From a virus (taxonomy: Duplodnaviria; Heunggongvirae; Uroviricota; Caudoviricetes): a stretch of 18,239 nt of DNA. Each line of letters starts with the position of its first letter. Within the stretch, counting starts at the first letter, position 1. Positions 1 through 17,591 of this stretch are shown one piece after another. The notes beneath the pieces are model-generated. The model was not told the DNA's origin and did not search any database. It saw only the letters and a list, made by a program, of their open reading frames with translations. The position numbers were made by a program, and so were the translations under genes. The stretch spans positions 1 through 18,239 of IMG/VR virus record IMGVR_UViG_2713896729_000006. One strand, given 5' to 3'.

Positions 1-1326
1 ATGGCGCTTTCAAGACAAAAATTTACCTTCGAAAGACTTCGCAGATTCACCTTACCGGAAGGGAAAAAACAAACTTTTCTTTGGGATGCAGATGTAACAA
101 CCCTGGCATGCCGAGCAACTAGCGGAGCAAAAGCCTTTGTATTCCAAAGCGTATATGCGGGGAAAACCCTTCGCATGACTATTGGCAATATTAACGACTG
201 GAAGATTGATGATGCGAGAGCCGAGGCAAGACGGATACAAACATTGATCGATACAGGGATAGATCCACGAGTTGCTAAGGCTGTAAAAATCGCAGAAGCA
301 GAATCCCTGCAGGCAGAATCACGTAAAACAAAAGTGACTTTCTCCGTCGCCTGGGAAGACTATCTTCAAGAATTGAGAACCGGTATCAGTGCAAAAACTA
401 AACGCCCATATTCTACTCGATACATTGCCGATCACATTAACTTGTCCAGTCGTGGAGGCGAAAGTAAAAAAAGAGGCCAAGGCCCGACTTCGGCTGGACC
501 ATTGGCTAGTTTGCTCAACCTGCCGTTATCGGAGCTAACCCCAGATTACATAGCAGCGTGGCTGAGTACAGAAAGGCAAAATAGACCTACCGTCACTGCT
601 CACGCTTATCGCCTACTACGTGCTTTCATCAAATGGAGTAATTATCAGAAAAAATATCAAGGGATCATTCCTGGCGATCTGGCACAAGATTACAACGTAA
701 GAAAAATGGTTCCCGTGTCAGCGAGTAAAGCTGATGATTGCCTGCAAAAGGAACAACTAAAAAGCTGGTTTAGTGCCGTGCGTAGCCTCAATAATCCTAT
801 TGCATCGGCCTATCTCCAAGTACTTTTGCTCACTGGTGCTCGGCGTGAAGAAATTGCGTCGCTTCGCTGGTCAGACGTAGATTTCAAATGGTCAAGCATG
901 CGAATTAAAGACAAGATCGAAGGTGAACGTATCATCCCTCTCACTCCTTATGTTTCTGAATTGTTAAATGTACTAGCGCAATCCCCAAATTCTGACGTAA
1001 ATAAGGAGGGTTGGGTTTTCAGAAGTAACAGTAAAAGTGGCAAAATTATTGAGCCGCGTTCAGCGCACAACAGAGCGTTAGTGCTGGCTGAGTTACCACA
1101 TATCAGCCTTCACGGTTTACGTCGTAGTTTTGGTACTTTGGCCGAGTGGGTTGAAGTTCCCACTGGTATTGTTGCTCAAATTATGGGACACAAACCCAGC
1201 GCTCTTGCCGAAAAACACTATCGCCGTCGTCCGTTAGATCTGTTACGAAAATGGCACGAGAAAATTGAGACATGGATCTTAAATGAAGCAGGTATTACCA
1301 TAAAAAACAACGTTGATATGCGTTGA
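1..1326 (+). CDS. Tyrosine-type site-specific integrase (genomic-island / P4-like family, IntF-like)
   Basis: 441-aa ORF starting at window position 1. C-terminal catalytic region carries tyrosine-recombinase motifs (LLLTGARREE, HGLRRSFGTLA, KHYRR). N-terminal region resembles the arm-binding domain of island integrases. Any cognate tRNA/att site would lie upstream of the window. Confidence 0.9.
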   Translation: MALSRQKFTFERLRRFTLPEGKKQTFLWDADVTTLACRATSGAKAFVFQSVYAGKTLRMTIGNINDWKIDDARAEARRIQTLIDTGIDPRVAKAVKIAEAESLQAESRKTKVTFSVAWEDYLQELRTGISAKTKRPYSTRYIADHINLSSRGGESKKRGQGPTSAGPLASLLNLPLSELTPDYIAAWLSTERQNRPTVTAHAYRLLRAFIKWSNYQKKYQGIIPGDLAQDYNVRKMVPVSASKADDCLQKEQLKSWFSAVRSLNNPIASAYLQVLLLTGARREEIASLRWSDVDFKWSSMRIKDKIEGERIIPLTPYVSELLNVLAQSPNSDVNKEGWVFRSNSKSGKIIEPRSAHNRALVLAELPHISLHGLRRSFGTLAEWVEVPTGIVAQIMGHKPSALAEKHYRRRPLDLLRKWHEKIETWILNEAGITIKNNVDMR

Positions 1327-1442
1327 TTCCATTAAAAATCAACATATTACAAAATATCATCAACTATTGATCAAGATAGATTTTCATGTATCGTAATACA
1401 CAGTTTAGTCAATGATACAGCAACTACACAGGAGATAAGCCA

Positions 1443-1883
1443 ATGGCAACCCCAGCAACTGTATCCATAGAACCCACTCTGGCAGCTATCAGAGCTCGCT
1501 GGTGTATTAATTCAAGTAAAACAACTCAATCCTTTAACGATCCTGCGTCCATGGAAGAGGTTGTCGAGTATCTCAAAGGAACATACTCAGCTCTTCGCAA
1601 GTCTGTCGCATGCGCCAAACTGAAAATTTTACATCTTAAACAAAGAATGCAAAATGCTACTAACTTTCTCGCGCGTCTGATGTCATGTAAAAATCAGGCA
1701 TCCAGATCGCATCACAGTACGGCTAAATCAGCTAAAAGTGCCTTATCATCAGATTCAGGTGATGGTAGTGACCCCGACCCCGAGCCCGAAACGTTTCCTT
1801 CTGCCTTCATTACTACCCCTACTAATTCAATAATGCTTAAAGCTTTCTTTGCCAATATCTCAATCACTGAGGTGGCAAAATGA
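1443..1883 (+). CDS. yagN: Hypothetical protein (146 aa), acidic Ser/Asp/Pro-rich C-terminal half; size and position match YagN of the CP4-6 prophage
   Basis: ORF preceded by AGGAGA about 9 nt upstream of the ATG; stop overlaps the next start (ATGA). Symbol assigned from recalled size and gene order (146/284/232/208 aa run next to an integrase), not from a search. Confidence 0.55.
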   Translation: MATPATVSIEPTLAAIRARWCINSSKTTQSFNDPASMEEVVEYLKGTYSALRKSVACAKLKILHLKQRMQNATNFLARLMSCKNQASRSHHSTAKSAKSALSSDSGDGSDPDPEPETFPSAFITTPTNSIMLKAFFANISITEVAK

Positions 1884-2104
1884 GCGCATTCAAACTCCCG
1901 GATACATCTCAATCACAGCTCATTTCAACAGCTGAGTTAGCTAAAATCATTAGCTACAAATCTCAAACCATTCGTAAATGGCTTTGTCAGGACAAATTGC
2001 CTGAGGGGCTACCTCGCCCAAAACAAATCAATGGCCGCCATTACTGGTTACGTAAAGATGTCCTCGATTTTATAGATACATTTTCTGTACGAGAAAGTCT
2101 GTAA
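1880..2104 (+). CDS. AlpA/excisionase-family helix-turn-helix DNA-binding protein (74 aa)
   Basis: Small ORF coupled to the upstream gene by an ATGA overlap. The segment LISTAELAKIISYKSQTIRKWL...GRHYWLRKDVLDFI fits the AlpA / phage excisionase HTH pattern. Position just downstream of the integrase is typical. Confidence 0.7.
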   Translation: MSAFKLPDTSQSQLISTAELAKIISYKSQTIRKWLCQDKLPEGLPRPKQINGRHYWLRKDVLDFIDTFSVRESL

Positions 2105-2140
2105 TAAATTACAGATTTAATTTTATTGATTTATAGCGAT

Positions 2141-2165
2141 GTTGCCCCGAGAAAAATGGGGCAAC
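2141..2165 (+). terminator. GC-rich hairpin downstream of the AlpA-like gene; possible weak intrinsic terminator or regulatory hairpin
   Basis: GTTGCCCC (2141-2148), 9-nt loop GAGAAAAAT, GGGGCAAC (2158-2165). The downstream U-tract is poor (ACTGAGAAATTT), so efficiency is uncertain. Confidence 0.3.
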
Positions 2166-2222
2166 ACTGAGAAATTTCAGATAGTAGTTTTATATTGAGA
2201 TAACAAAGAGGTTTCCTTAAAA

Positions 2223-3077
2223 ATGTCTAATAGTGTTACTAATTTTGAGATGAGCAGCGTTCTACCAGGAAAAAAACCTTGTCAAGGCAAAAACAATGAG
2301 TCACAGGTAGTACAGACTACTCCCATAAAAAAACACTCAGTCACGTTCAAAAATCAATCTTCATTAGGAGTAATTGATCATTATGCCAGACTAACAAATA
2401 AATCTCACTCTTCCGTAATAGCGGAAGTTGTGGATTTGGCTATCCCTATATTAGAAAAATGCAATCGTCATAACTGGTCAATAAATGAAATAAAAAATGA
2501 CCTGTTAAAGTTCTCTATAAAAGAAAGCATCAATCGAAGCCGAGGTAAAACAGAAGTAACTCTGGAAGAGTACTGTTCGTTAATCTGGAAAACGAACATC
2601 ATGAGTCCATTAAAAATCCCCATTGCAGATTACTTTCAACTGAACGCTAATGATGAATTCATGGGGAAAGATGAAAAAACAGTTATACGTGAAAGGCTAT
2701 CCTCGCTGAGGGAAAATTACGATATGGAAAAAGCCATTTACATTTACAATCAACGACATTTTAATGTAAAGCATCAAAGTGTCTCAGGATATTCAAACAT
2801 TATTCTTATTCATAGAACAACCTTTGAGGATTATTACTTTGATGTCGGGCAGACTCTACTCTTGTCAACATCCCAATTAATTATATTCGGGATAAATGAA
2901 GTTCTTAGAAGAAAGGGGATTGTTATGCCTTATCCGGTTGTTTGTTGGATTGATATTTACCATGTCAATGAGATGGTGGTTATGCTGCCAGTGATCCGTA
3001 AAACAGATGTTTCCAACCGTGTTAATGCACCGGATGACATCATTATAAACCCATACTCACAGGAGAGCAGAACCTAA
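2223..3077 (+). CDS. yagM: Hypothetical protein (284 aa) with a putative N-terminal ribbon-helix-helix-like segment; YagM-like
   Basis: AT-rich ORF with AAAGAGG upstream of the ATG. Residues ~38-75 (HSVTFKNQSSLGVIDHYARLTNKSHSSVIAEVVDLAIPILE) resemble an RHH (CopG/Arc-like) beta-strand plus two helices. Remainder has no recognisable motif. Symbol from recalled size/order only. Confidence 0.6.
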   Translation: MSNSVTNFEMSSVLPGKKPCQGKNNESQVVQTTPIKKHSVTFKNQSSLGVIDHYARLTNKSHSSVIAEVVDLAIPILEKCNRHNWSINEIKNDLLKFSIKESINRSRGKTEVTLEEYCSLIWKTNIMSPLKIPIADYFQLNANDEFMGKDEKTVIRERLSSLRENYDMEKAIYIYNQRHFNVKHQSVSGYSNIILIHRTTFEDYYFDVGQTLLLSTSQLIIFGINEVLRRKGIVMPYPVVCWIDIYHVNEMVVMLPVIRKTDVSNRVNAPDDIIINPYSQESRT

Positions 3078-3103
3078 GAGGTAACAAAGAAGGACAAACA
3101 ATT

Positions 3104-3802
3104 ATGAGAGGTAAAATACTACTTTACCACTCAAAGTATCGCTGGCAATCACGCTCTATTTTTGGTTATTTTTTATACAAAATAACATTATTCAGGTATC
3201 AAAAAATAATTTATGACACCGGAGTGCATCAGATGCGTTCATTTTTTTACACCATATGCAGTAGCGAACAGCAAGAAAGCATTACAGATCATCACTCACT
3301 TGCTGAGATATGCCAAAAATTTAATATTCTACCTGAACATGTTGTGATCGAGCAGGTAGATATTAAAGAGGTTGTTTCAGAGCAACGTTTACTCAGACAA
3401 TTGATTCATCATGAAATGAACCGGCAGGACACGCTTGTCATTCCAGATCTAAGCTGTCTTGGCAGAACTGTGGAGGACTTACAGAATATTTTATTTTTTT
3501 GCCTTCAAAAAGAAATGTTTATCTACAGCTACCATCCAGCTTCAAGGATAGAGCCTTCTGCTGAAAGTTGCTTGTCTTTTTTGATTGCTCGTCAGGATAC
3601 GATTGACATTCACAATCTGAAATCAACTAAAAGCCGATATCGACATGTTAAGAAGAAATTAGGACGAAAGGAGGGAAGCAAATACCGACGTGATATCACA
3701 ATACTTAAGAAAGGTGGATTTACTCAGGCTGAGATTGCAAAGAAATTGAGTATCAGTTTATCGACTGTGAAGCGGCACTGGAATAACGGAATCATCGGTT
3801 AA
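3104..3802 (+). CDS. yagL: Serine-recombinase (resolvase/invertase)-like protein with C-terminal HTH; catalytic arginines substituted, so probably a non-catalytic DNA-binding protein; YagL-like
   Basis: FFYTICSSEQQ aligns to the resolvase YARVSTxxQ motif (Ser retained, Arg replaced by Ile). DTLVIPDLSCLGRT aligns to DTLVVxKLDRLGRS (first Arg replaced). C-terminal GGFTQAEIAKKLSISLSTVKRHW is a resolvase-type HTH. A resolvase-length protein would start at the internal Met at 3233 (MRSFFYT...); the 232-aa ORF from 3104 has the better SD (AAGAAGGA). Confidence 0.7.
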   Translation: MRGKILLYHSKYRWQSRSIFGYFLYKITLFRYQKIIYDTGVHQMRSFFYTICSSEQQESITDHHSLAEICQKFNILPEHVVIEQVDIKEVVSEQRLLRQLIHHEMNRQDTLVIPDLSCLGRTVEDLQNILFFCLQKEMFIYSYHPASRIEPSAESCLSFLIARQDTIDIHNLKSTKSRYRHVKKKLGRKEGSKYRRDITILKKGGFTQAEIAKKLSISLSTVKRHWNNGIIG

Positions 3803-3899
3803 TTCCAGAAGCTAATTGCAGAGTAACTTTTTAACAGCCATCACAGGCTGGGGCTACCTTCGTCTCAAATTTAGATGTTGGATAGGTATTATAATGGCA

Positions 3900-4071
3900 T
3901 TGTGTACTCTTACTACCTGTATTCACCAGTAAGAGTAGTAATCAGATCAGTATATCCGTACTAAGATCTGATACCAGTATATACCGACAACAGTGACCAG
4001 GAATAGCCCTGCCTGTATGGCATCCCTGTACGGTCTGCTATAGACCGTAGGACCAAATACAGGTATATATT
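3900..4071 (+). promoter_or_regulatory. Intergenic control region upstream of the yagK-like gene with three hairpin-forming inverted repeats and reiterated CTGTA/TACAG motifs
   Basis: Inverted repeats TACTCTTACT/AGTAAGAGTA (3905-3914 / 3928-3937), ATCAGATC/GATCTGAT (3941-3948 / 3965-3972) and TACGGTCT/AGACCGTA (4029-4036 / 4042-4049). Motifs CCTGTATTC, CCTGTATGG, CCTGTACGG and ATACAGGTA recur across the region. Confidence 0.4.
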
Positions 4072-4698
4072 ATGAAAACATATCAAGGTACTCATGGAGT
4101 ACATATCCTCGAATATCAGATCAAGATTAAAAAATTATTATGTTATTTGACTAACCGTTACCCCAGGTTAACGGCGGTACGTGTCGATCTGCATTATCCG
4201 AAGATAGTCGATAACGGAGACAATATCTGCTGTTTCCCTAATCTTGAACCAGGGGTGATATCCCGAATGCGTGATTCCCTCAGAGCTAAACTGGAGGCTG
4301 ACCGTACCCGTAAGGAGCGTGAAGGTAAACGCATCTACCGTTGCCCTTTATTTATTATATGGGCGAAAGAGTATTCTGAATCAGGTAAATGCCACTATCA
4401 CATTTGCCTGTTGTTCAACAAAGACGCTTACTACCACCTCGGGGATTACGATCAGCACGATAACCTGAGAGGGATGATTACGGGAGCGTGGTACAGCGCC
4501 CTGAGACTGGAGAGAGACGATCACCCAGGTCTGGTCCATTTTCCTGATAACTGTAAGTACGTGCTGGATACCAATAATGCTGACTTCCAGCATAACTACC
4601 AAGCGCTGTTAACCCGACTGGATTACCTCACCAAAGTCGAAAGCAAAGTGTTTGGTGAAGGAGACCGTAACTTCGGCTGTAGCCAAATCGATCTGTAA
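4072..4698 (+). CDS. yagK: YagK/YfjJ-family protein (inovirus Gp2-like family), 208 aa
   Basis: 208-aa ORF with the Cys/His-rich pattern of this family (CCFPN..., GKCHYHICLLFNKDAYYHLG). Size and position after the recombinase-like gene match yagK (and paralog yfjJ) of K-12 cryptic prophages. Assignment from memory. Confidence 0.65.
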   Translation: MKTYQGTHGVHILEYQIKIKKLLCYLTNRYPRLTAVRVDLHYPKIVDNGDNICCFPNLEPGVISRMRDSLRAKLEADRTRKEREGKRIYRCPLFIIWAKEYSESGKCHYHICLLFNKDAYYHLGDYDQHDNLRGMITGAWYSALRLERDDHPGLVHFPDNCKYVLDTNNADFQHNYQALLTRLDYLTKVESKVFGEGDRNFGCSQIDL

Positions 4699-4707
4699 GT
4701 CGGCAAT

Positions 4708-4737
4708 GGCCTTCTCTTTGTGGGAAGGCCTATTTTA
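4708..4737 (+). terminator. Putative rho-independent terminator after the yagK-like gene
   Basis: GGCCTTC (4708-4714), 9-nt loop, GAAGGCC (4724-4730), followed by TATTTTA (4731-4737). Lies between convergent genes. Confidence 0.5.
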
Positions 4738-4785
4738 CGTCAGAGTTCAATAATATAACCAGCAGATAACCTGCCCCCAGGATCT

Positions 4786-5577
4786 TCAATTTGGTGTGAT
4801 TTTTCCACTTTCAGTCATGATAGCGATTGCTTCGTCGATAGTCTGTGTTGTAAAGAGCGAGTTTTCCCTACAGTCCTTGCGAATCACCTTCCTGTTTTTT
4901 TGCACAGAAATGTTCTCGCACCAAGCTAATGTTTCGGCGGCATGCTTTTCTTCCATGCTAATGTCCAAAAAAGCGAGGCGGCTATCAAGGGATTGCATAT
5001 CCTCATTGACAATTGAAGGACTGGATTCTAGGAGGTTCAAACGGTTTTCAACATCGGCAACCTTGCCTTTCACCTGTGAGACGTCTTCCACCAATTTTTC
5101 ATGTCTGTGGATAGCATCAGCAAGTGCTCGTGAGTTTTGGGCCAATATTTCAGCCATTTGCGCGAGGGCAGATCCTTTTGCTTCTGGCGGTGGTGGATAT
5201 ACTCCATGTTTAGTCAACGATGGTATGACCTCATGGAATAACCATTTTTGAAAGCGCTTACCAGCCGCGCTTCGGTCACTCGACATAACTCGATACAAAC
5301 CTGGTTGGGTGACGAAGATCTCTTTCTGACCTTCAAAAACACCATTTTCAGCATCTGTAGTAATATACTCATCGGGGTCAAGAGCCTGTAATTGCGCCCT
5401 GATTATTCCAGCCATCGATTTTACTGTGTAATCAGCGTTGATTTCTCTATTTTCTTTATTCAGCGTGATTAAAACATCTCGTAGTGAGATATATAGAATC
5501 TCACCAAGTATCAATGTTCTTAGATCACTTTCACCAGTCTCACCACGGTAACATATCTTGGTCAGGTTACTATTCAT
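4786..5577 (-). CDS. Bro-N / antirepressor-like domain protein (263 aa) with coiled-coil C-terminal half
   Basis: N-terminal region with ...FQKWLFHEVIPSLTKHGVY..., matching the Bro-N/KilA-N-type consensus (WV..eVLP.iRk.G.Y). C-terminal half is heptad-like and charged. GTGAGGA lies 3-4 nt before the ATG. Confidence 0.65.
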   Translation of the reverse strand: MNSNLTKICYRGETGESDLRTLILGEILYISLRDVLITLNKENREINADYTVKSMAGIIRAQLQALDPDEYITTDAENGVFEGQKEIFVTQPGLYRVMSSDRSAAGKRFQKWLFHEVIPSLTKHGVYPPPPEAKGSALAQMAEILAQNSRALADAIHRHEKLVEDVSQVKGKVADVENRLNLLESSPSIVNEDMQSLDSRLAFLDISMEEKHAAETLAWCENISVQKNRKVIRKDCRENSLFTTQTIDEAIAIMTESGKITPN

Positions 5578-5632
5578 TGATCCTCACATCGCAAAGTATA
5601 GGCACATTCAAATCAGTATCTTTTTTCCTGTG

Positions 5633-5665
5633 CTGTTCTGAGGTGAGTATATCACCTCAGAACAG
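5633..5665. promoter_or_regulatory. Perfect 14-bp inverted repeat with 5-nt spacer between the end of the operon and the Bro-N gene start; candidate operator and/or RNA hairpin
   Basis: CTGTTCTGAGGTGA (5633-5646), GTATA, TCACCTCAGAACAG (5652-5665). No U-tract follows on either strand, so not a canonical intrinsic terminator. Confidence 0.45.
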
Positions 5666-5691
5666 GTGGCCAAATTCGGTGTGTCACTTCA

Positions 5692-6870
5692 CTATGCCTT
5701 CACCAGTTTCGCAGACATGGGGTCATAAACATACCCAATGATGCTACCATCCTTAATACGTGCAACAGCCTCATCGATAACGAATAACGGAACGAGAAAC
5801 CATTCCTCGGGCTGTACTGGATGGCCGAAACGGTCGTTAATGGTAATGTTAAGCCTTGCGGGTGCAAACAACCTGTGAAACAGGTTTTCCATCCGGGTGC
5901 GGTTGATGCCTGCAAGCTTGTATGAAGCTACTACCTCGACCTTCGCTAACAGATAGGTGGAATCGTGTTCCGCATTGGCAATACGCGCCTCTACTTTGCC
6001 GCCAGTCACTCCAATCTTGTGAATGACATCACGATGTTCAGCTACATAAGGGTTATCAGATAGCGAACGCAACACATAAATGGTGCCACTTTCTAGATCG
6101 CTCTCTTCTAGAGCATCGCTGAATAAAGGCCCCATGTCTGGATCGGTAATTCGGCGTGCTGTTTCGTCTTTATACAAAGCACGAACCAGTGACAGCCGAA
6201 GTAGGTTGCTTTCCGTACCATTCGAGTAAATGACACGCAGTCGAGCATCTTTCTTCCCCTGTGGCGAATCGAACTCTTCACCTTCCTCAGCCACATAAGC
6301 CGTTTGACCATCCAGGATGAACCAATGGCCCACTTCAATCGTTGCATACTGTCCAAAAGGTCGGGTCACTCTTAACCCTGAACTTAGATCACTGCGCACC
6401 TGTTCAAATAGCGGTTTGAATGTATCAAAATCCTCGCACGGCTTGCGATCCGCGATCCCTTGTACAGCACGCTTTTCGGAGCTAGCACGAACATGACGCA
6501 AGACTGTGATATCGTCCTCGCTGGTAACATCCGCCAGTTCGGCAGCCAAATTATCGATATCGATAAATTCGTCCGCTGACTCCGCTCCCTCCCCCCCTCC
6601 GGCCAACAAGCCCTGATGATCCAGCGGCTCTAGCAAGGCACGGCAGTCTGGGAGACTGCGTAGCCGGTCGAGCCGCACTGCATAGAGGCGCTCGAAGATC
6701 TCACGATCTTCGCCGTGTTGCGGCGCACGTCCATGTTGGTCAGCGAAGCGCTGGATTTCCTCAAAACCTGCGATGATGCGTTCCTCGCTGGCTGGACGTC
6801 CTTTTTTCTTCTCCGGTGGTGCAAATTCGGCAAGTTCTGCCGCCAAATCGTCTAAATCAGAATTACTCAT
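5692..6870 (-). CDS. GIY-YIG-like (T5orf172-type) domain protein, about 392 aa; third gene of the methyltransferase-helicase operon (B. subtilis YeeC-like)
   Basis: C-terminal region GTIYVLRSLSDNPYVAEHRDVIHKIGVTGGKVEARIANAEHDSTYLLAKVEV fits the GIY-(x10)-YIG-like/T5orf172 pattern with a following conserved Arg. The ATG at 6870 (MSNSDLDD...) overlaps the helicase stop (ATGAGTAA), so it is preferred over the longer ORF start at 6936. N-terminus carries two copies of a D(L/I)D(D/N)LAAELA(E/D) motif. Confidence 0.65.
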   Translation of the reverse strand: MSNSDLDDLAAELAEFAPPEKKKGRPASEERIIAGFEEIQRFADQHGRAPQHGEDREIFERLYAVRLDRLRSLPDCRALLEPLDHQGLLAGGGEGAESADEFIDIDNLAAELADVTSEDDITVLRHVRASSEKRAVQGIADRKPCEDFDTFKPLFEQVRSDLSSGLRVTRPFGQYATIEVGHWFILDGQTAYVAEEGEEFDSPQGKKDARLRVIYSNGTESNLLRLSLVRALYKDETARRITDPDMGPLFSDALEESDLESGTIYVLRSLSDNPYVAEHRDVIHKIGVTGGKVEARIANAEHDSTYLLAKVEVVASYKLAGINRTRMENLFHRLFAPARLNITINDRFGHPVQPEEWFLVPLFVIDEAVARIKDGSIIGYVYDPMSAKLVKA

Positions 6871-8908
6871 AATGTCCCTCCGCCCTAAAACGCATAAACG
6901 CGGCTGCACCTTCTGCAAGGTGCTTTTCCCAGGCATCCGGCGAAGTTAACGATGGGAGGCGTCCACGTTCACGTTTGAATTCAGCAGCACGCTTGGCGAT
7001 CACTTTGGCATCTTCAGGCGTGATCGAGGTACGCTTGGCCGAGATGGCCGCCGCGACCTGCTTCAAGCTATCTTCGCTCATTGTCTTAGCAAGGATGGCG
7101 TAGGCTTCACCAAAGGGATTGATGCGGTCGATAAGATCTATGTCTAAATCGCGTACGTCCATCGCAAAGCGACGCACTCCGTCAATAAGGGCAGTATTGA
7201 GCGTCCCATCGTTCTCGCCGTTGACAATACGCTTAGCCTGCTGCGTGAGATTAAGGGCGGCAATAGCGTGCTGACGCACAGCCTCCTGATCTTCAGCGCC
7301 AAGTTCAGGGTACTTTTCTTTGATGATCTTCCCCATACGAACCTGTGTTAATTCTTCAGGAATGAGCTCTTCGTCGAACAGTCCACGTTCGATGGCGGGC
7401 TTATCTTGCACAAAAGCCGCGATCACTTCATTTAAATCTTCCTGGCAGATGCGTGCCGCCTCTTTGCTCCTGGGCTCGGCAAGTCCCTTAATCTCGATTT
7501 GATACGTCCCTGTCTGCTCATTAACACCAAAATTGCAGTTATCCGGGTCATACCCTCCTTCACCATAATCAAAACCTGGGGTCGGGCCGCTTTCTGGGTT
7601 CTTAGGCTTGAACTCGAAGCGCGGAGCCAATACTTGCTCCATCAGCAGGCTTGCCGCGATGGCTTTCAAGGTATCGTTGACTGCCTCGGTGACTGCCCCC
7701 TCTACAGCATCCGGCTCGGCGATCAGGTTAGTAAACCTTGCGCGGGTTTTACCCGGCGCGTCGCGAGTGGCGCGACCGATGATCTGCACGATCTCAGTCA
7801 GGCTGGCACGGTAACCAACGGTCAACGCATGTTCGCACCAGATCCAGTCGAAACCTTCCTTCGCCATACCAAGTGCAATAATGATGTCCACATAATCACG
7901 GTCTGTCTTCATTTCTGCAGCACGGAGACTTTCCTGAATCTTGCCTTGGCTGGTTGGGTCCACCAGGTCAGCAATACGTAACACGCGTCCATCGAGGCAT
8001 TTGACTAGCTGAAAACCAGTCACAGGATCCGCTCCTTGCCAATCGCCAAGCTCGCCGAGAATGTGCTCCACCTCTTTGATTTTATCCTTCGTGCTCTCGC
8101 GCGAATTGACGTTGGGAATATGGATAATGGTCTTCTTGTCAGGATCGAGTACATTGAGGATGTCATCGACGTAGGAGCCACTGTAGAAGAAGTAGCCGAT
8201 ATCGAGTTGCTTGAGGTATTCGTAGCCGTTAAGTTGTTCGTAGTAGGTGTAGGTGACGGTATCGAACCTGGACTCATCCTGAGGAGCCAACACGGCCTCC
8301 GCATCACCCCGGAAGTAGGATCCGGTCATGGCAACGATGTGCGTCTTGTCCCGCGCGATAAACTGCCCCAGCTGCTGACCAAGCTTATTATCCGGGTTAG
8401 CTGACACATGGTGGAATTCATCGACCGCGATCAGGCGATCGTCAAACGCTTCTATACCGTAGGCATCGACCGCGAAGCGAAAGGTTGCGTGTGTGCAAAC
8501 AAGCACCTTGTCACTACTTTCAAGAAAAGAGCCAAAAGATCTTACCTTGCCACCGTTGTCGTTACCGGGCGCGTTGCACAGGTTCCACTTAGGTTCGACA
8601 TGCCAATCAGTCCAGAATCCAAACTGCGATAGCGGTTCATCGTTGAAGCTCGCGCCGATAGATTTTTCCGGCACAACGATGATTGCCTGTTTAATCCCTT
8701 GATTTTCGAGTTTGTCGAGTGCGACGAACATCAGAGCACGACTCTTACCGGAGGCGGGCGGCGACTTGATGAGAAGATATTGTTCTCCGCGCTTCTCATA
8801 GGCCCTTTCTTGCATAGGCCGCATCCCAAGAGCATTAGCCTTGGTCGATGCTCCGCTGCGTGAGTAGGTAACGGAAACGGACGGTACTGATTTAATCTTG
8901 TTGCTCAT
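6863..8908 (-). CDS. Superfamily 2 DEAD/DEAH-box helicase/ATPase (681 aa); second gene of the operon (YeeB-like)
   Basis: Walker A (LLIKSPPASGKSRAL), DExH box (LIAVDEFHHV), motif III-like (MTGS) and motif VI (QIIGRATR) in order, then a C-terminal extension of about 300 aa. Start ATG overlaps the methyltransferase stop (ATGA at 8905-8908). Confidence 0.85.
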   Translation of the reverse strand: MSNKIKSVPSVSVTYSRSGASTKANALGMRPMQERAYEKRGEQYLLIKSPPASGKSRALMFVALDKLENQGIKQAIIVVPEKSIGASFNDEPLSQFGFWTDWHVEPKWNLCNAPGNDNGGKVRSFGSFLESSDKVLVCTHATFRFAVDAYGIEAFDDRLIAVDEFHHVSANPDNKLGQQLGQFIARDKTHIVAMTGSYFRGDAEAVLAPQDESRFDTVTYTYYEQLNGYEYLKQLDIGYFFYSGSYVDDILNVLDPDKKTIIHIPNVNSRESTKDKIKEVEHILGELGDWQGADPVTGFQLVKCLDGRVLRIADLVDPTSQGKIQESLRAAEMKTDRDYVDIIIALGMAKEGFDWIWCEHALTVGYRASLTEIVQIIGRATRDAPGKTRARFTNLIAEPDAVEGAVTEAVNDTLKAIAASLLMEQVLAPRFEFKPKNPESGPTPGFDYGEGGYDPDNCNFGVNEQTGTYQIEIKGLAEPRSKEAARICQEDLNEVIAAFVQDKPAIERGLFDEELIPEELTQVRMGKIIKEKYPELGAEDQEAVRQHAIAALNLTQQAKRIVNGENDGTLNTALIDGVRRFAMDVRDLDIDLIDRINPFGEAYAILAKTMSEDSLKQVAAAISAKRTSITPEDAKVIAKRAAEFKRERGRLPSLTSPDAWEKHLAEGAAAFMRFRAEGHYE

Positions 8909-11712
8909 GCATTAGTTCTCACTTTACGCTTCTTGCCTTTGGCCGGTGCAGCAGAAGCGGCCATCTTTATATAAAGATCAAATAGCTTTTCAAGCCGCTC
9001 TGTATCATTCTTAAAGCGACGGCCGATGTAGATGCGCTCCAGTACTTCATCATTGCGATCATGCGCAGCCCGCAGATCAGTAGGCATGTTAGCAGGATCG
9101 TATAGGTCCGCGATGGTCGCGGGAAAATGATGCTCACGCGCCAGAAGTATGTCCTCCGCGCAGCGTGTGAGGTCAGCCTTGTTTTTTTCTGTGAGTTTTG
9201 GTACTGGGAAGGTGTTCCAGCCGAGGGTGTTAGAGTAGCGGTAGCGTGTTTCCAATTTTCCGCAGATGGTGGCGATCCAAACCAGGTGTAGACGAGATGC
9301 AATGAGCGCAAGATTCCAGAGCGGAGCGTCGTAGAGAGCAAAGGCGAGGTTACTGACTACCGAATGATTATCAATCAGTCCAACAGGAAGATACTCGCGC
9401 CCTTCCGATGAAACCCCCGGTAGAATCAGCGTGTGCTTGCCACCGTGATACATTTCGCGAAACTGATGAGCCCGTGATGCTAACTCATTCGTACCAGCAT
9501 CTTTACTTTTGAGCCGCATTTCCCGAACGCCATCAATCCGACCCCGAATAGACGCAATCTCCAAAGCTTGCGGCAATTTTACATCAGGGATCCAGAGGCA
9601 CTTACGTACTACTCCGCGAATAAACTCGGCAGAACCATAGATGCGCCGAAGAAATGTCTCTTCATCCTGCTTGCTCAAACCGAGCGAAACCGCGTCATCC
9701 GCCGATAACAAAAGATTTCCCCCATCGACGGGCATGTTGCCAAAAGACATATCCGGCAGACCCGATATGCTCTTGCGCTGGCCCTCGACTACAACATCCT
9801 CACCAACACTCAGATAGGGCGTGATGTTTGTCGCCTCGCGTACAGTAGTTTGGCCATTGCGGTCCAAGTCGTAAAGTAGCCTTGTCTTACTCACATCCGT
9901 AGATAGGCCGACGATAGCGACTGTTACACCCGCGTTGTGTGCAGCAAGGTTCGTCCATTTGAAGCTGGAGTGCGCGAAGCGAATGTGGGAGCCACATTTG
10001 AAAATTGCTGGCCACAGGATAGGAACAATTCGGCCTTGACAGATAGAGTTGGTGCTAACAAAAGCCGAATCCGTTGGTGTGGCTTGCGCGTAGGCAGCAG
10101 CTTTCATGAACCAACCACCAACATAATCGATTTGTTTAGACGAAATACCATAAGGTTCAAATACCGAAGCCAAATCCGCTTTCTGCTCTTTAGTCTGCGT
10201 TTGGCTACCTTTGTAAGGTGGGTTACCACAGATGTATGTCTCCCCACCTTCGTTCTGAAAGCCAATCTCTGCTTGACCGAGAGGCGTCTCAAAGAGGTTA
10301 TCTGCCTGCAACTTCACGCCAATTCCGGACGGAGGGCAAACGCTCAACCAATCAATCCGCAATGCGTTGCCACATGTAATCCAATTATCATTACGCAGAG
10401 GAAGAAACTCGGCCAGTGCAAGTTTTAGTCCCCGGTACACCACATCGCACTGATACTCAGCAATAACTAGCGCGAGACGGGCAATCTCCGCAGGGAAATC
10501 TCGTATTTCGATCCCGCGAAAGTTGGTAAGAGGGATGTCAGAGGCATTATCCATCTCGCCACGTCGTCGATTAATCTCGGCCTCGATGGCTCGCATTTCC
10601 TTGTACGCAATCACTAAGAAGTTGCCAGATCCACATGCTGGGTCGAATACGCGGATTCGGGCCATACGCTTGCGCAGATTGAGCAGCATGCGCGGATTGT
10701 CACCGGCTTCATCCAGTTTCGCCCGCAGTTCGTCGAGGAATAGTGGGTTAAGCACCTTGAGTATATTGGGGACACTAGTGTAATGCATTCCCAACTCACC
10801 ACGCTCTTCGTCTTCGGTAATGGCCTGAATCATCGAGCCGAATATGTCTGGGTTGATTTTGGTCCAATCCAGATTGCCAACATGTAGAAGATAGGATCGC
10901 GCAATACGGCTGAAGCGCGGTACCTCCTCACTTCCCGAGAAAAGAGCGCCGTTTACATAAGGAAACTCAGCAGCCCAACGCGGGATACCGACAACACTTC
11001 GCTCATCGCGTGGGGTGTTCATTGCACGAAACAACGTGGCGATGACCTCGTGCAAATTAGAAGCGTCGCGCTCACTCATCTGCGCAATAGTGTCAGTAAA
11101 GCGCCCCTTGCCTATAAATATGTCAGTGTCTTCGGCGAAAAAGCAGAAAATTAGACGCGCCATGAACTTGTTCATGTCATGACGACGCCCCGAAGTACCC
11201 CATTCAGGATTGTCTTTTAACAGTTCGACGTACAGGCGGTTCAAACGGCTAGTAGCACGGATGTCAAAGGCGTCTTCGCTGATCTGCCGAACAGTGCTGA
11301 TACCTGCCAATGGCAAAAAGAAGCCGAAGTGATCGGGAAAGTCTTTAAAGGCACAAGCCACAGTCTGACCACTGTTGAGGTCCTCGGCTTCAAAGTATTT
11401 GCCGTCCGTGGCAAGGATGAATTTCGCCTTGGCCTTGCCTGTTGCCGGGCTGGCCTTAAGTGCAGCCAGCATCTGTGTGACTTGGCCCCCTTCACTGGCC
11501 AGAATGTGGATGTTGTTTGTCTGAAGAACACCACCCAAGTCGGACTTATTCGATGCCCCGGCGCGCAGACGTTTGATGGTCGTTTCCTTGTTACCAAAGG
11601 CTTCAAGAAAAGCATAAGGAAACTCTATAGGATCAAAGGGTTGTTCCGCAAGATCCGTGATGGCTTGCTCAATTTCTACGGCGTTCATTTGCGTACAGTT
11701 CTCCATTGGCAT
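8905..11712 (-). CDS. MmeI-family (Type IIL/IIG-like) gamma-class N6-adenine DNA methyltransferase with C-terminal target-recognition region (935 aa); first gene of the operon (YeeA/PglX-like)
   Basis: Motif X-like (LGMHYTSVPNILKVLNPLFLDEL), motif I (VFDPACGSGNFLV) and motif IV (CGNPPYKGSQTQTKEQKADL) in gamma order. Further MmeI-like blocks: RLIFCFFAEDTDIF, FPYVNGALF, LDWTKINPDIFGS, SAFVSTNSICQG, LETRYRYSNTLGWNTFP, LYDPANMPTDLRAAH. The N-terminal 100 residues show no obvious D...ExK nuclease motif by eye. The true start may be the Met at residue 9 (MNAVEIEQ). Confidence 0.88.
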   Translation of the reverse strand: MPMENCTQMNAVEIEQAITDLAEQPFDPIEFPYAFLEAFGNKETTIKRLRAGASNKSDLGGVLQTNNIHILASEGGQVTQMLAALKASPATGKAKAKFILATDGKYFEAEDLNSGQTVACAFKDFPDHFGFFLPLAGISTVRQISEDAFDIRATSRLNRLYVELLKDNPEWGTSGRRHDMNKFMARLIFCFFAEDTDIFIGKGRFTDTIAQMSERDASNLHEVIATLFRAMNTPRDERSVVGIPRWAAEFPYVNGALFSGSEEVPRFSRIARSYLLHVGNLDWTKINPDIFGSMIQAITEDEERGELGMHYTSVPNILKVLNPLFLDELRAKLDEAGDNPRMLLNLRKRMARIRVFDPACGSGNFLVIAYKEMRAIEAEINRRRGEMDNASDIPLTNFRGIEIRDFPAEIARLALVIAEYQCDVVYRGLKLALAEFLPLRNDNWITCGNALRIDWLSVCPPSGIGVKLQADNLFETPLGQAEIGFQNEGGETYICGNPPYKGSQTQTKEQKADLASVFEPYGISSKQIDYVGGWFMKAAAYAQATPTDSAFVSTNSICQGRIVPILWPAIFKCGSHIRFAHSSFKWTNLAAHNAGVTVAIVGLSTDVSKTRLLYDLDRNGQTTVREATNITPYLSVGEDVVVEGQRKSISGLPDMSFGNMPVDGGNLLLSADDAVSLGLSKQDEETFLRRIYGSAEFIRGVVRKCLWIPDVKLPQALEIASIRGRIDGVREMRLKSKDAGTNELASRAHQFREMYHGGKHTLILPGVSSEGREYLPVGLIDNHSVVSNLAFALYDAPLWNLALIASRLHLVWIATICGKLETRYRYSNTLGWNTFPVPKLTEKNKADLTRCAEDILLAREHHFPATIADLYDPANMPTDLRAAHDRNDEVLERIYIGRRFKNDTERLEKLFDLYIKMAASAAPAKGKKRKVRTNA

Positions 11713-11993
11713 GTGACCGCCCTGCTGCTACTGGTGTGCAGTGAACTCATGTCATATCCTAGGTTTTCTTGGAAATTTTTGACCGTAAGTTTAACAGAAT
11801 AGAACCCAGCGCTGTAGCTGATTCAGTCTCAGATCCACGTTTCAGAAAGCCCTATTATGTATTTATGGCGAGAATTTTAGCATTGAGATATTTTCGATAA
11901 AATATACATATTTTCAGCCAATTAAAGACTGCTAAATTCATGGTATATGAGACGCTCGCATGTGAGTAACTTCCGTTCTTATTTCTGGTTTTC
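11713..11993 (-). promoter_or_regulatory. AT-rich intergenic region upstream of the methyltransferase gene; probable promoter region for the operon (elements not mapped)
   Basis: About 280 bp of AT-rich non-coding sequence between the IS66 remnant and the operon start, with no convincing ORF on the operon strand. Confidence 0.3.
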
Positions 11994-13316
11994 TTAAAAC
12001 GTATTAAGGTTGCACCGAATATGGTTTTCCCCGCTGACCCTGACCCGATTGACTGTCCAGTCAGCTATGACGTCAAGCACATGACGAAGGTAGCTTTCTG
12101 GATCCACGCCGTTTAGTTTGCACGTCCCGATCAGACTGTACATCAGCGCTACACGCTCACCTCCGTGGTCTGAGCCGAAGAACAGCCAGTTTTTTCTCCC
12201 CAAACTGACCATCCGCAGCGCATTTTCAGCGATGTTGTTATCGGCTTCTGTCCAGCCATTGCCTGCATAGTGCGTCAGGGCCGGCCACTGGTTAAGGGCG
12301 TACGCGAACGCTTTCGCCAGCTCTGAGTGTCGTGACAGGGTGTTCATCTTTTCACGCAGCCAGCTTTCCAGGGATTTCAGCAGCGGTTTCGCTTTCTGCT
12401 GACGTTCAGCAAGACGTTGCTCCGCCGGCATTCCCCTTATTTCCGCCCCGATGGCATACAACCCGCCGATACGCTTCAGGGCATCCTCCGTCAGCGCCGA
12501 CGGCGTGCGGGCGTACACATCGTGGATTTTACGGCGGGCGTGAGCCCAGCAGGCGGCTTCCGTTATCTGGCCACCGCGGTACAACTCGTTGAATCCTGCA
12601 TACGCATCCGCCTGCAGCACTCCCCTGAAGCCGGCAAGATGGGTCTGCGGGTGGATGGCTTTTCTGTCCGGGCTGTAAGCGAACCACACCGCCGGTGCGA
12701 CTGCTGACCCGGCGTTGCGGTCATCACGAACGTACTTCCACAATCGCCCGGACTTCGTCTTCTTATTGCCCGACAGCAGCATCTGGACCGGGGTATCATC
12801 GACATGGAGTTTGCCGTCGCTCAGGACATAGCCCCGAAGCGCCTCCTCCAGCGGTGACAGCAGCCTGCAGCATGCATCCACCCAGCCCGACAGGAGGGAG
12901 CGGCTCAGTTCCACACCCTGGCGGCTATATATTTCAGACTGGCGGTACAGCGGGGTATGCTCTGCATACTTTGAGCCCAGTACCCGGGCCAGCAGCCCCG
13001 CTCCGGCGATACTCCGCTCGATGGGACGTGAAGGCGCGGGGGCCTGCACGATAGCGTCGCATTTTGTACAGGCGTGTTTTTCCCGCACGGTCCGGATAAC
13101 CCGGAAGGCGCTGCGCATCAGCTCCAGCTGTTCAGCAGTATCTTCACCCAGCCAGCGCAGTGAATCGCCACAGTCCGGGCAGCATGATGCCGCCGACAAC
13201 AGCCGTTTTTCGTCACGAGGGAGTGATTCGGGGAACGGTTTACGGGTGCGGGTCTGGCGAAGCGACCACGCTCCAGCCGTTTGGTCAGCAGACACAGCCT
13301 GTCGCCGGTAGACCAC
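11994..13316 (-). pseudogene. tnpC: IS66-family transposase TnpC, lacking the N-terminal leucine-zipper segment and with an aberrant C-terminus
   Basis: Zinc-finger region (CCPDCGDSL...ACTKCD) and the conserved IS66 core are present. The ORF is about 440 aa against roughly 510-540 aa for intact TnpC, and the last 20 residues do not resemble the family C-terminus. Confidence 0.7.
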
Positions 13317-13486
13317 AGCAATTTTACCTGACTGCCACTGCAGCCCCGGAAGATGAAGACTTGGCCGGACATCGGGTCGTCTTTCAGTGCCGTCTGCACT
13401 TTTGCCGCCAGCCCGTTGAAGCCGTTGCGCATGTCGGTGATACCGGCAACCAGCCAGATTTTAGTGCCTGCAGGAAGATTTATCAT
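13118..13486 (-). pseudogene. tnpB: IS66-family TnpB (orf2), C-terminally aberrant; likely fused to tnpC by an internal deletion
   Basis: MINLPAGTKIWLVAGITDMRNGFNGLAAKVQTALKDDPMSGQVFIFRG...LWSTGDRLCLLTKRLERGRF is canonical IS66 TnpB for about 80 residues. The rest diverges and the ORF overlaps the tnpC frame by about 200 bp. Confidence 0.6.
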
Positions 13487-13866
13487 ACAGTCCCTCGCAT
13501 CAGTTCGCGCAGGACAGTGGTGATGAGTTCAGTTGAGGGATGAGTCAGTGTTATATCTCCGCCCCGACATTTTATGTGACAGGCAGTCTGAGGTGAACAG
13601 GATGGCGGTTCGGGCGTTGGGGGAGATGGCTCTGCCCGAAATTGCACGGGTATGAGAGCAGGAAGCGACGATGCGTTTTTCCGTGGGTGGCAGACCCGCC
13701 CTTCACGTTGCCAGAGCCTTATCCATTTAAAGAGCAGGTTGTCATTGACATCATGTTGTCGGGCCAGCGCAGCAACACTTCCTTCTTTTTCAAGTGCCAG
13801 CCTGACCAGTTCCATTTTAAACTCAGGGGAATATCGTTTTCGGGGAAGTCTTTCTTTGGCGCGCAT
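13483..13866 (-). CDS. tnpA: IS66-family accessory protein TnpA (orf1), 127 aa
   Basis: MRAKERLPRKRYSPEFKMELVRLALEKEGSVAALARQHDVNDNLLFKW... matches the IS66 orf1 pattern. Stop overlaps the tnpB start (ATGA). Confidence 0.8.
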   Translation of the reverse strand: MRAKERLPRKRYSPEFKMELVRLALEKEGSVAALARQHDVNDNLLFKWIRLWQREGRVCHPRKNASSLPALIPVQFRAEPSPPTPEPPSCSPQTACHIKCRGGDITLTHPSTELITTVLRELMRGTV

Positions 13867-14145
13867 TAGGTGTCCACCTGCAAATTAAGTGGGGGCTTAA
13901 GTTACAGGATAGTGGTTTCAGAGCCAGACGTTTTTGAGACAACGCTTACTCTAAACCCAAGCGTAAATGTCTATTATTGGCAAAATACCACCAGCCAACA
14001 TGAGCTGTGATGTAAAGTTGACACTGCTACAGTTACATGAGCCTGTTTATATTCTAAATAAATTCAGATAGATATTATCTCCGTGAATCCCCCGCCTCCC
14101 TGACCGGAGCGCGGGAATTTTTGTTTTTCACGCTGAGAACCCTGT

Positions 14146-14250
14146 ATGAATAAAACTGATGGCCTTCAGGCCCTGGAAAAACCGCTGGCGTCGCTTCCCG
14201 ATACGCTTCGCCAGCTTATTCTTGAACGTATTCAGAATCTGACCCACTAC
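14146..14250 (+). CDS. 5' fragment (35 codons) of an unidentified gene, cut by an N10 run
   Basis: ATG at 14146 opens MNKTDGLQALEKPLASLPDTLRQLILERIQNLTHY, running into the N-run at 14251. Product not recognised. Confidence 0.3.
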
Positions 14251-14260
14251 NNNNNNNNNN
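14251..14260. other. Run of 10 N (gap or masked junction)
   Basis: Exactly ten ambiguous bases separating unrelated sequence blocks. Confidence 0.95.
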
Positions 14261-14335
14261 GCCGTTGCCGAACGTAGGCCGGATAAGGCGTTCACGCCGC
14301 ATCCGGCAATCGGTGCACGATGCCTGATGCGACGC
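14261..14335. repeat. REP/BIME element (E. coli repetitive extragenic palindromic sequences)
   Basis: GTAGGCCGGATAAGGCGTTCACGCCGCATCCGGCA is the reverse complement of the canonical REP unit; a second REP begins at GCCTGATGCGACGC and is cut by the next N-run. Confidence 0.85.
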
Positions 14336-14345
14336 NNNNNNNNNN
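14336..14345. other. Run of 10 N (gap or masked junction)
   Basis: Exactly ten ambiguous bases. Confidence 0.95.
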
Positions 14346-14521
14346 GCCCCTGCAGCGGGTCATAATAGCGGTGGCGGTTGTAATACAGGCCGGACTCCTC
14401 ATCATACTGCTGACCCGGCAGGCGAATGAGCTGCTGCAGATGATGCGGGTTCTCATCACTCAGCAGGTTGCCCCATTCATCATATTCTGCGCACCACGCT
14501 GTTGCCCCTTCCGTGCTGATG
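14346..14521 (-). pseudogene. Fragment of an Rhs/YD-repeat protein core, bounded by N-runs on both sides
   Basis: Minus-strand translation [58 protein letters not shown] contains the Rhs core signature ([10 protein letters not shown]). Confidence 0.8.
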
Positions 14522-14531
14522 NNNNNNNNNN
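14522..14531. other. Run of 10 N (gap or masked junction)
   Basis: Exactly ten ambiguous bases. Confidence 0.95.
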
Positions 14532-14793
14532 CGAGCTGCTGCACCATATTCCTGAACAACTGAGCAAACGAGAGAGGTATACCGACAAATGGCAGCGACG
14601 CACACACTCCCTCTGGCGTCACCGGGCATGGCGCGCATCTGCCTTTACGGGGATTTACAACGATTTGGCCGCCGCATCGACCTTCGTGTGAAAACGGGGG
14701 CTGAAGCCATTCGGGCGCTGGCCACACAGCTCCCGGCGTTTCGTCAGAAACTGAGCGACGGCTGGTATCAGGTACGGATTGCCGGGCAGGATG
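14532..14793 (+). pseudogene. Second, divergent copy of a lambdoid tail K 3' end and I 5' end, bounded by N-runs
   Basis: Encodes ...ELLHHIPEQLSKRERYTDKWQRRTHSLWRHRAWRASAFTGIYNDLAAASTFV (K C-terminus) and, overlapping, MAATHTLPLASPGMARICLYGDLQRFGRRIDLRVKTGAEAIRALATQLPAFRQKLSDGWYQVRIAGQD (I N-terminus). Near-identical to 16832-17094 with roughly a dozen substitutions counted by eye. Confidence 0.8.
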
Positions 14794-14803
14794 NNNNNNN
14801 NNN
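14794..14803. other. Run of 10 N (gap or masked junction)
   Basis: Exactly ten ambiguous bases. Confidence 0.95.
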
Positions 14804-15212
14804 ATCAGGCGGTACAGCCATTCAGGCCGCTGCGGCGAAATTCCATTTTGCAACCGGAGGATTTACGGGAACCGGCGGCAAATATGAGCCAGCGGGGATT
14901 GTTCACCGTGGTGAATTTGTCTTCACGAAGGAGGCAACCAGCCGGATTGGTGTCGGCAACCTGTACCGCCTGATGCGGGGCTATGCGGAAGGTGGTTATG
15001 TGGGCGGTGCCGGAAGTCCGGCGCAGATGCGGCGGGCTGAAGGCATTAATTTTAATCAGAACAATCACGTGGTGATTCAGAACGACGGTACGAATGGTCT
15101 GCCAGGTCCACAGATGATGAAGGCGGTGTATGACATGGCCCGCAAGGGTGCCCGTGATGAAATCCAGGCACAGATGCGCGATGGTGGTCTGTTCTCCGGA
15201 GGTGGACGATGA
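14804..15212 (+). CDS. H: Lambda-like tail tape measure protein H, C-terminal fragment (5' end missing at the N-run)
   Basis: In-frame translation ...GGFTGTGGKYEPAGIVHRGEFVFTKEATSRIGVGNLYRLMRGYAEGGYVGG...MRDGGLFSGGGR matches the C-terminal end of lambda gpH. Stop overlaps the M start (ATGA). Confidence 0.8.
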
Positions 15213-15538
15213 AAACCTTCCGCTGGAAAGTGAAACCCGGTATGGATGTGGCTTCGGCCCCTTCTGTAAGAAAGGTGCGCTTTGGTGATGGCTATTCCCA
15301 GCGAGCGCCTGCCGGGCTGAATGCCAACCTGAAAACGTACAGCGTGACGCTTTCTGTCCCCCGTGAGGAGGCCACGGTACTGGAGTCGTTTCTGGAAGAG
15401 CACGGGGGCTGGAAATCCTTTCTGTGGACGCCGCCTTATGAGTGGCGGCAGATAAAGGTGACCTGCGCAAAATGGTCGTCGCGGGTCAGTATGCTGCGTG
15501 TTGAGTTCAGCGCAGAGTTTGAACAGGTGGTGAACTGA
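15209..15538 (+). CDS. M: Lambda-like minor tail protein M (109 aa)
   Basis: MKTFRWKVKPGMDVASAPSVRKVRFGDGYSQRAPAGLNANLKTYSVTLSVP... matches lambda gpM in sequence, size and position. Confidence 0.92.
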   Translation: MKTFRWKVKPGMDVASAPSVRKVRFGDGYSQRAPAGLNANLKTYSVTLSVPREEATVLESFLEEHGGWKSFLWTPPYEWRQIKVTCAKWSSRVSMLRVEFSAEFEQVVN

Positions 15539-16236: not shown

Positions 16237-16284
16237 ATCCCATGACAGAGACAGAATCAGCGATTCTGGCGCACGCCCGGCGAT

Positions 16285-17531: not shown

Positions 17532-17549
17532 TGCAAAACATTTTATGTG

Positions 17550-17576: not shown

Positions 17577-17591
17577 TATGGAGCGTGACGA

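Follow-up and report, generated by a model that had tools for sequence, protein, structure and literature searches.

The first 4735 positions of viral record IMGVR_UViG_2713896729_000006 as a very probable integrase-proximal arm of a CP4-6-family genomic island beside a variable slot

The DNA analyzed here, referred to as the window, is a stretch of 18,239 nucleotides (nt) that comprises positions 1 to 18,239 of the IMG/VR virus record IMGVR_UViG_2713896729_000006. The window opens with an integrase gene, which is followed by a run of genes on the same strand that ends at yagK. An earlier reading of the sequence (the original prediction) had described consecutive plus-strand open reading frames (ORFs) of 146, 284, 232 and 208 amino acids (aa) after the integrase, and all four were found exactly where it had placed them. 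The features of this region are as follows.

1-1326, plus strand: intF, P4-type tyrosine integrase gene, 5' end cut by the window edge (Pfam, RefSeq)
1443-1883, plus strand: yagN, 146 aa, corresponding to K-12 YagN
1880-2104, plus strand: ykgV, AlpA-family helix-turn-helix (HTH) protein gene, 74 aa (HTH_17, PHROG), corresponding to K-12 ykgV/b4729
2223-3077, plus strand: yagM, 284 aa (Pfam UCP007319)
3104-3802, plus strand: yagL, 232 aa, probable degenerate small serine recombinase with a C-terminal HTH
3803-4071, plus strand: intergenic leader of yagK, with a promoter-like block and three hairpins
4072-4698, plus strand: yagK, 208 aa, predicted HUH-superfamily Rep-like nuclease of the YagK/YfjJ family
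4708-4735, plus strand: yagK intrinsic terminator hairpin, where the conserved arm ends (terminator scan, pairwise alignment)

Positions 1-4700 of the window were compared with 5426 complete Escherichia coli genomes by megablast. The search revealed a full-length match in K-12 MG1655 with a DNA identity of 98.5%, a value that was also obtained for many K-12 laboratory derivatives, and an identity of approximately 100% in the mastitis strain ECC-1470; at least 80% of the region was present in 324 of the genomes. RefSeq names the matched genes intF, yagN, ykgV, yagM, yagL and yagK in both ECC-1470 and K-12, and the curated K-12 record places intF-yagN-ykgV-yagM-yagL-yagK at the end of the 'cryptic prophage CP4-6'. 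The gene order, strand and gene lengths at this intF end of CP4-6 are the same as in the window, and the proteins of K-12 and the window are of equal length throughout, with identities of 99.5% for IntF, 100% for YagN, 100% for YkgV, 97.9% for YagM, 97.4% for YagL and 94.2% for YagK. The original prediction had matched the four ORFs in size and order to yagN-yagM-yagL-yagK beside intF, and the direct comparison with K-12 bore this out; the low similarity to YagN, YagM, YagL and YagK that would have spoken against it was not seen, because the proteins were 94-100% identical. The AlpA-like gene at 1880-2104 had been taken for an extra gene, which was mistaken, since it is ykgV (b4729) and has the same protein accession in K-12. 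Its coupling to the yagN-like gene had been recognized correctly, as the start of ykgV overlaps the stop codon of yagN in ATGA.

The pairwise alignment with K-12 revealed near-identity up to window position 4735 and none beyond. The arm homology ends 37 nt past the yagK stop codon, just after a hairpin that the terminator scan located at 4708-4730 (GGCCTTCTC-TTTGT-GGGAAGGCC, followed by a T-rich tail). When window 4200-5650 was used as the query, every yagK match elsewhere ended at query position 536, which corresponds to window 4735, and the junction between yagK and the Bro-N gene that follows it in the window was present in only 5 of the 5426 complete genomes. The cargo past the arm was different from that of K-12, as had been predicted. 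In CP4-6 of K-12, yagK is followed by yagJ, IS1, argF and xylonate genes, whereas the window carries a Bro-N gene, a methyltransferase-helicase-nuclease cluster and an IS66 insertion sequence (IS); the K-12 cargo (yagJ, argF, yagE-H, mmuPM and others) was not found downstream of the window yagK.

Along the arm, the DNA identity to K-12 was 99.7% for intF, 100% for yagN and ykgV, 98.6% for yagM, 99.0% for yagL and 92.8% for yagK, with none after it. This profile suggests a crossover near the 5' end of yagK, with yagK travelling together with the downstream content, because the yagK identity of 92.8% stands beside an intF-to-yagL arm of 99-100%. Within that arm, 18 differences from K-12 were concentrated in approximately 480 nt at window 2700-3190 (the 3' end of yagM and the 5' end of yagL), and the remainder was 99.7-100% identical; the alignment suggests that this patch represents a second small recombination tract.

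The genes that follow the arm are all encoded on the opposite strand.

4786-5577, minus strand: Bro-N/anti-repressor-like gene, the first gene of the variable slot (Pfam Bro-N, PHROG anti-repressor families)
5692-6936, minus strand: T5orf172/GIY-YIG-type nuclease gene, YeeC-like (Pfam MUG113 and T5orf172; RefSeq 'GIY-YIG nuclease family protein', with a start that gives 392 aa)
6863-8908, minus strand: DEAD/ResIII helicase gene, YeeB-like (Pfam DEAD and ResIII; PHROG DNA helicase)
8905-11712, minus strand: MmeI-family methyltransferase gene, DnmA/YeeA-like, 935 aa (five MmeI Pfam domains; PADLOC type IIG)

We found that the methyltransferase contains all five MmeI Pfam domains and matches the PADLOC type IIG model at 3e-283. 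Its alignment to the solved MmeI structure does not begin before residue 96; Pfam still scores the MmeI_N domain. Morgan et al. (PMC2731913) have described a class of MmeI homologues that diverge from MmeI over the first ~100 residues, have no PD-ExK motif and are neighbored by genes for a YeeB-like helicase and a YeeC-like protein, and the window cluster fits this definition, with an MmeI-like methyltransferase differing in its first ~100 residues, a helicase and a T5orf172 protein. Additionally, the gene order and domains are the same as those of DnmA(YeeA)-YeeB-YeeC from B. subtilis, where the likeness to YeeB and YeeC is one of domains and order only. Methyltransferase alleles that lie beside the same yagK, Bro-N, nuclease and helicase genes showed an identity of 84-100% over the first ~450 residues, mostly within 86-96%, and of only 26-36% at residues 600-750, inside the target recognition domain, which suggests that the alleles differ in DNA specificity. 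By analogy with these systems, the cargo is a candidate anti-phage cluster of a known, restriction-like type. Vibrio homologues of DnmA-YeeB-YeeC have been reported to protect against some phages (PMC9973331). We also considered whether the Bro-N gene was a diverged K-12 yagJ, and this was rejected, as the sequences have no similarity.

To place this slot among its relatives, loci with yagK homologues were compared. The common plan of the related islands consists of a left arm that ends in yagK or yfjJ, a variable slot and, where sampled, a right arm with a YfjP/YkfA-type GTPase gene. In ECONIH5 and ABWA45, the gene next to a K-12-type yagK encodes 395 aa without an assigned function; the corresponding call in G5 has 415 aa. 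Truncation of this 395-aa gene by IS1 gave K-12 yagJ, and in KCJ3K291 the gene is split. AH02 and CX21 carry a different integrase at a different chromosomal site; here the place of yagM-yagL is taken by a yfjI-type gene, and the gene after yagK encodes an 857-aa DEAD/DEAH helicase. In strain 2015C-4498, insertion sequences and a TrlF-type ATPase precede the GTPase arm. An allele encoding an 84%-identical YagK, in islands adjoining smpB (the ssrA site), is followed by a 1104-aa NERD protein, a ScaI-type restriction-modification pair and the GTPase, and one encoding a 58%-identical YagK by a PDDEXK protein and a type I restriction-modification system. In CP4-57 of K-12, yfjJ (encoding a protein 43% identical to the window YagK) is followed by abpB-abpA, yfjM, rnlA-rnlB and the GTPase gene yfjP; AbpAB is an experimentally studied anti-phage system (PMC10732053), and RnlAB is annotated as a toxin-antitoxin pair in K-12 CP4-57. 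The slot is not exclusively defensive, because that of K-12 CP4-6 itself contains mostly metabolic genes and insertion sequences.

The exact window YagK protein was followed by the Bro-N gene and the three-gene cluster in 10 of the 10 distinct places that were read. The three-gene cluster also occurs without yagK, both in a CP4-44-like island beside the GTPase arm and in a Trb/RepA element, and an obligatory link between yagK and the cluster was rejected for this reason. The original prediction had proposed a conserved integration and maintenance module that exchanges defense cargo between strains. A conserved arm with an exchangeable, often defensive slot is supported in the sampled relatives; two parts of the proposal require revision, as yagK itself seems to belong to the exchanged unit and the slot of K-12 is not a purely defensive one. 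For the sampled loci, ordinary recombination among mobile elements is favored as an explanation over a dedicated mechanism driven by yagK.

The 395-aa gene (14589-15776 on the minus strand of locus L005) occupies the first slot position and is intact beside a K-12-type yagK in several strains. It had no match in NCBIfam or PHROGs and could be an uncharacterized cargo gene.

The attachment (att) site was observed in ECC-1470; between this strain and the window there are 2 single-nucleotide polymorphisms over 1-12043, and identity ends at 12044. In ECC-1470, the island is flanked by thrW on one side and, on the other, by a 54-nt repeat of the thrW 3' end (51 of 54 positions identical) that is located approximately 100-155 nt upstream of intF, which is the thrW arrangement of CP4-6. 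The distal arm of the ECC-1470 island contains GTPase, WYL, DUF932, antirestriction, RadC, DUF987, YeeU and CbtA genes.

YagK was assigned to the Pfam family YagK_YfjJ_C and, among the PHROGs, to a single family, phrog_25019, which is of unknown function. Among 30 homologues that are 35-88% identical to the window YagK, neither histidine of the HUH motif (H108-Y-H110) varied, and the same was true of Y185 and K188 in the YxxK tyrosine motif. The predicted model resembles HUH nucleases and displays the HUH fold; a sequence search of solved structures with YagK gave no match. By its motifs and predicted fold, YagK is a conserved HUH Rep-like nuclease, with an activity that we infer from these features. 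The conserved HUH motifs provide a testable handle on a y-gene without an assigned function.

The leader upstream of yagK, from approximately 3808 to 4071, is conserved together with the gene even where yfjI replaces yagL upstream. It contains a conserved promoter-like block, GGATAGGTATTATAAT, that is common to all family members examined, followed by three hairpins formed by inverted repeats at 3905-3937, 3941-3972 and 4029-4049, with stems of 10, 8 and 8 bp, respectively. The DNA fold z-score of the leader (3895-4060) was -3.75. The hairpins are confined to the close CP4-6 clade; neither CP4-57 nor more distant yagK/yfjJ loci have them. A role as a family-wide Rep origin was rejected, since the hairpins are missing from CP4-57 and P0062-type loci, and we treat them as a leader of unknown role. 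At the locus with the 84%-identical YagK protein, the stems are kept and one loop varies; the leader of strain 2015C-4498 shows one possible compensatory change in the hairpins. A promoter scan gave no more matches than in shuffled sequence, and Rfam and tRNA scans of the window gave no match.

Taken as a whole, window 1-4735 is best explained as the conserved arm on the integrase side of a CP4-6-family genomic island, a type of island that in E. coli is found integrated at thrW, a tRNA-Thr gene; we hold this assignment with high confidence. In the account that we propose, IntF would catalyze integration and excision of the island, with a copy of the thrW 3' end as the site. YkgV, translationally coupled to yagN, most likely controls excision or island transcription, by analogy with AlpA in CP4-57, and YagL would probably only bind DNA. 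YagK would be a Rep-like nuclease whose gene has a conserved promoter region and a terminator of its own, and the arm ends at this terminator. The variable slot follows the terminator and is bounded on its other side, in related islands where this was seen, by the YfjP/YkfA-type GTPase gene; in the window it holds the Bro-N gene and the DnmA/YeeA-YeeB-YeeC-type cluster before it is cut by IS66. Homologous recombination within the conserved flanks is the most likely way in which the slot content changes, and yagK would move together with the cargo.

Two described systems resemble this arrangement. CP4-57 of K-12, with the gene order intA-yfjH-alpA-yfjI-yfjJ, abpB abpA yfjM rnlA rnlB, yfjP and onwards, shares with the window an integrase, an AlpA-type regulator, a YagK/YfjJ protein and a slot with anti-phage genes, and its right arm (GTPase, DUF932, antirestriction, RadC and toxin-antitoxin genes) matches the shared plan. 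It differs in its site, which is ssrA rather than thrW, in the presence of the DUF3987 gene yfjI in place of yagM-yagL, in the 43% identity of YfjJ and in its cargo. The Pseudomonas transfer-messenger RNA (tmRNA) islands have a core of IntY, AlpA, an inovirus Gp2-like protein and RadC, carry variable cargo that usually includes defense systems, and are transferred by jumbo-phage transduction (PMC12595487). They share with the island described here an integrase, AlpA, Gp2-like and RadC core, in which the likeness between the Gp2-like protein and YagK is by family name only; they belong to another genus and use another att site, and jumbo-phage transfer was shown for those islands alone. For E. 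coli, there is ample documentation of defense systems carried at tRNA hotspots by islands with an integrase (PMC10121019). In the literature on CP4-6 with thrW and defense, and on yagK/yfjJ, we found no paper on this slot as such. The arm, the architecture and the cargo type are all of known kinds, and the pattern is an ordinary one already described for CP4-type islands.

Several points weigh against this interpretation of the window. The comparison of slots was based on a convenience sample of yagK-homologue loci and not on a census. The island boundaries rest on ECC-1470, a near-identical genome, because the att site and the GTPase arm lie outside the window. The activities of IntF, YkgV and YagK in this strain are predicted from their sequences. 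The defense role of the window cluster is not certain, because dnmA-yeeB-yeeC of B. subtilis gave no phage protection (PMC9973331). Finally, decay and IS traffic, and not clean swapping, account for some of what distinguishes the window from K-12.

The last point can be extended to a rival explanation, in which a single ancestral island decayed and was rearranged through IS elements in both strains, and this accounts for the whole difference from K-12. The IS1-truncated yagJ, a K-12 slot full of IS1, IS5, IS30 and IS911, and the interruption of the window slot by IS66 are in line with this possibility. However, intact junctions free of IS elements were observed at which unrelated first genes (the Bro-N gene, the 395-aa gene, the 857-aa helicase gene and the NERD protein gene) follow the same terminator, Bro-N and YagJ have no similarity, and the drop of yagK to 92.8% beside a 99-100% arm points to recombination; we consider decay as the only cause quite improbable. 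A rival that we regard as somewhat less improbable, while still unlikely, is that the element is a P4-like satellite or a satellite of the phage-inducible chromosomal island (PICI) type, whose arm is a replication and regulation module mobilized by a helper phage. In favor of this, the arm encodes a P4-type integrase, an AlpA-type regulator and a Rep-like protein; in sister islands, a DUF3987/YfjI gene replaces yagM-yagL, and the analogous Pseudomonas islands are moved by jumbo-phage transduction (PMC12595487). In contrast, the arm and the ECC-1470 island contain no capsid-redirection, packaging or primase genes, with the alpha primase-helicase, sid, psu and delta absent from the arm and from the ECC-1470 island annotation; PHROGs gave only integrase, excisionase-type and invertase families and phrog_25019 (YagK), and no helper phage is known.

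The remaining alternatives concern YagK. The yagK unit, consisting of the promoter block, the 180-nt hairpin-rich leader, the gene and the terminator, may have an active rolling-circle replication or mobilization function. If so, it would replicate or transfer the excised island or the adjacent slot and drive cargo exchange among CP4-type islands with different integrases. We regard this as very unlikely, because the cargo moves in elements that lack yagK as well, and the hairpin leader does not extend to the whole family. Slimmer still is the chance that YagK moves the adjacent cargo by rolling-circle (HUH) transposition and thereby links allele and cargo. This would agree with the strict conservation of the HUH and tyrosine motifs, with the joint occurrence of yagK allele and cargo in all ten places, and with a leader-gene-terminator unit that is common to islands with different integrases. 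It is at odds with the three-gene cluster lacking yagK in the CP4-44-like island and the Trb/RepA element and with the absence of the hairpin leader from more distant family members, and a crossover near the yagK 5' end explains the linkage equally well. The reading of the window as a CP4-6-family arm next to a slot that changes by ordinary recombination is preferred. Its main value is one of correct annotation, namely that of a K-12 CP4-6 arm adjoining a variable slot; slots of this kind have been recognized before, in surveys of defense islands (PMC10121019) and in CP4-57 of K-12. Additionally, the yagK/yfjJ terminator and the YfjP/YkfA-type GTPase gene provide sharp, searchable borders for harvesting cargo such as the 395-aa gene.

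Turning to the other genes of the arm, IntF contains the Pfam domains Arm-DNA-bind_3 and Phage_integrase and is of the P4 type. The window opens 75 nt inside intF, and the 441-aa ORF corresponds to the annotated 466-aa protein of ECC-1470 and K-12 without its first 25 residues. Excision of CP4-6 has been measured in K-12 at 0.3-1.5 per 10^5 cells (PMC4632033), and the integration machinery of CP4-6 is thus not dead in that strain; the intF-to-ykgV stretch of the window is 99.7-100% DNA-identical to this excising element. YagN had no match in Pfam, NCBIfam, PHROGs or PADLOC. YkgV matched Pfam HTH_17 at 3e-6 and the PHROG 'excisionase and transcriptional regulator' at 1.4e-6. A PADLOC search of the arm proteins gave a weak mad1-type match for YkgV only and none for YagN, YagM, YagL or YagK. 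YagM was assigned to PF27701 (UCP007319) in the precomputed Pfam table. Its family is narrow, with 15 clusters, mostly at least 68% identical to the query, and with homologues under Enterobacteriaceae names only. The AlphaFold model of YagM was unusable (predicted local distance difference test score, pLDDT, of 39); its sole moderately confident part, residues ~36-72, is a strand-helix-helix that resembles a ribbon-helix-helix DNA-binding motif and has no profile support.

YagL matched the NCBIfam Mpi-invertase model at 8e-11 over residues 49-225 and the PHROG DNA invertase at 3e-8, and it scored as a serine recombinase below the Pfam and NCBIfam cut-offs. Residues 44-232 align full-length with small serine recombinases; the alignment used gamma-delta resolvase and Hin as references, with the L008 recombinase as a database control. 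In gamma-delta numbering, the equivalents of Ser10 and R71 are kept, R8 is replaced by I and D67-R68 by S-C, so that the catalytic set of the small serine recombinases (the serine with R8, R68 and R71) is incomplete. HTH_7 and sigma-70 region 4-type matches at residues 194-229 revealed a C-terminal HTH, and a sequence search of solved structures gave matches at chance level only. These features suggest that YagL is probably a serine-recombinase relic with only a DNA-binding role. From Met44 (ATG at 3233), the sequence MRSFFYTICSSEQQ aligns with serine-recombinase N-termini. The true start of yagL is probably this ATG, because all six aa differences from K-12, several of them radical, sit upstream of it in residues 9-27; the annotated start (codons 1-43, 3104-3232) would lie too far upstream.

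The slot of the window is interrupted by a further feature.

12044-14260, minus strand: IS66 copy, internally deleted, interrupting the slot (Pfam IS66 TnpC, TnpB and TnpA)

This copy contains tnpA, a truncated tnpB and a 440-aa tnpC ORF, and lambdoid phage tail genes M, L, K and I (14500-17930) lie beyond its far end. Three database loci, identical to the window elsewhere, depart from it at 12399, 14189 and 14261. The IS66 junction represents either an IS66-mediated rearrangement or an assembly join at the repeated IS.

In five loci with the same yagK allele (L012, L014, L018, L019 and L020), we observed a second integrase gene on the opposite strand (locus coordinates up to 5533), which ends approximately 320 nt upstream of intF. 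This is where the thrW 3' copy is found in ECC-1470. The second integrase gene leads a mini-island with either Hachiman (HamA and a helicase) or P4-like satellite genes. The mini-island and the intF island presumably form tandem island arrays at the thrW site.

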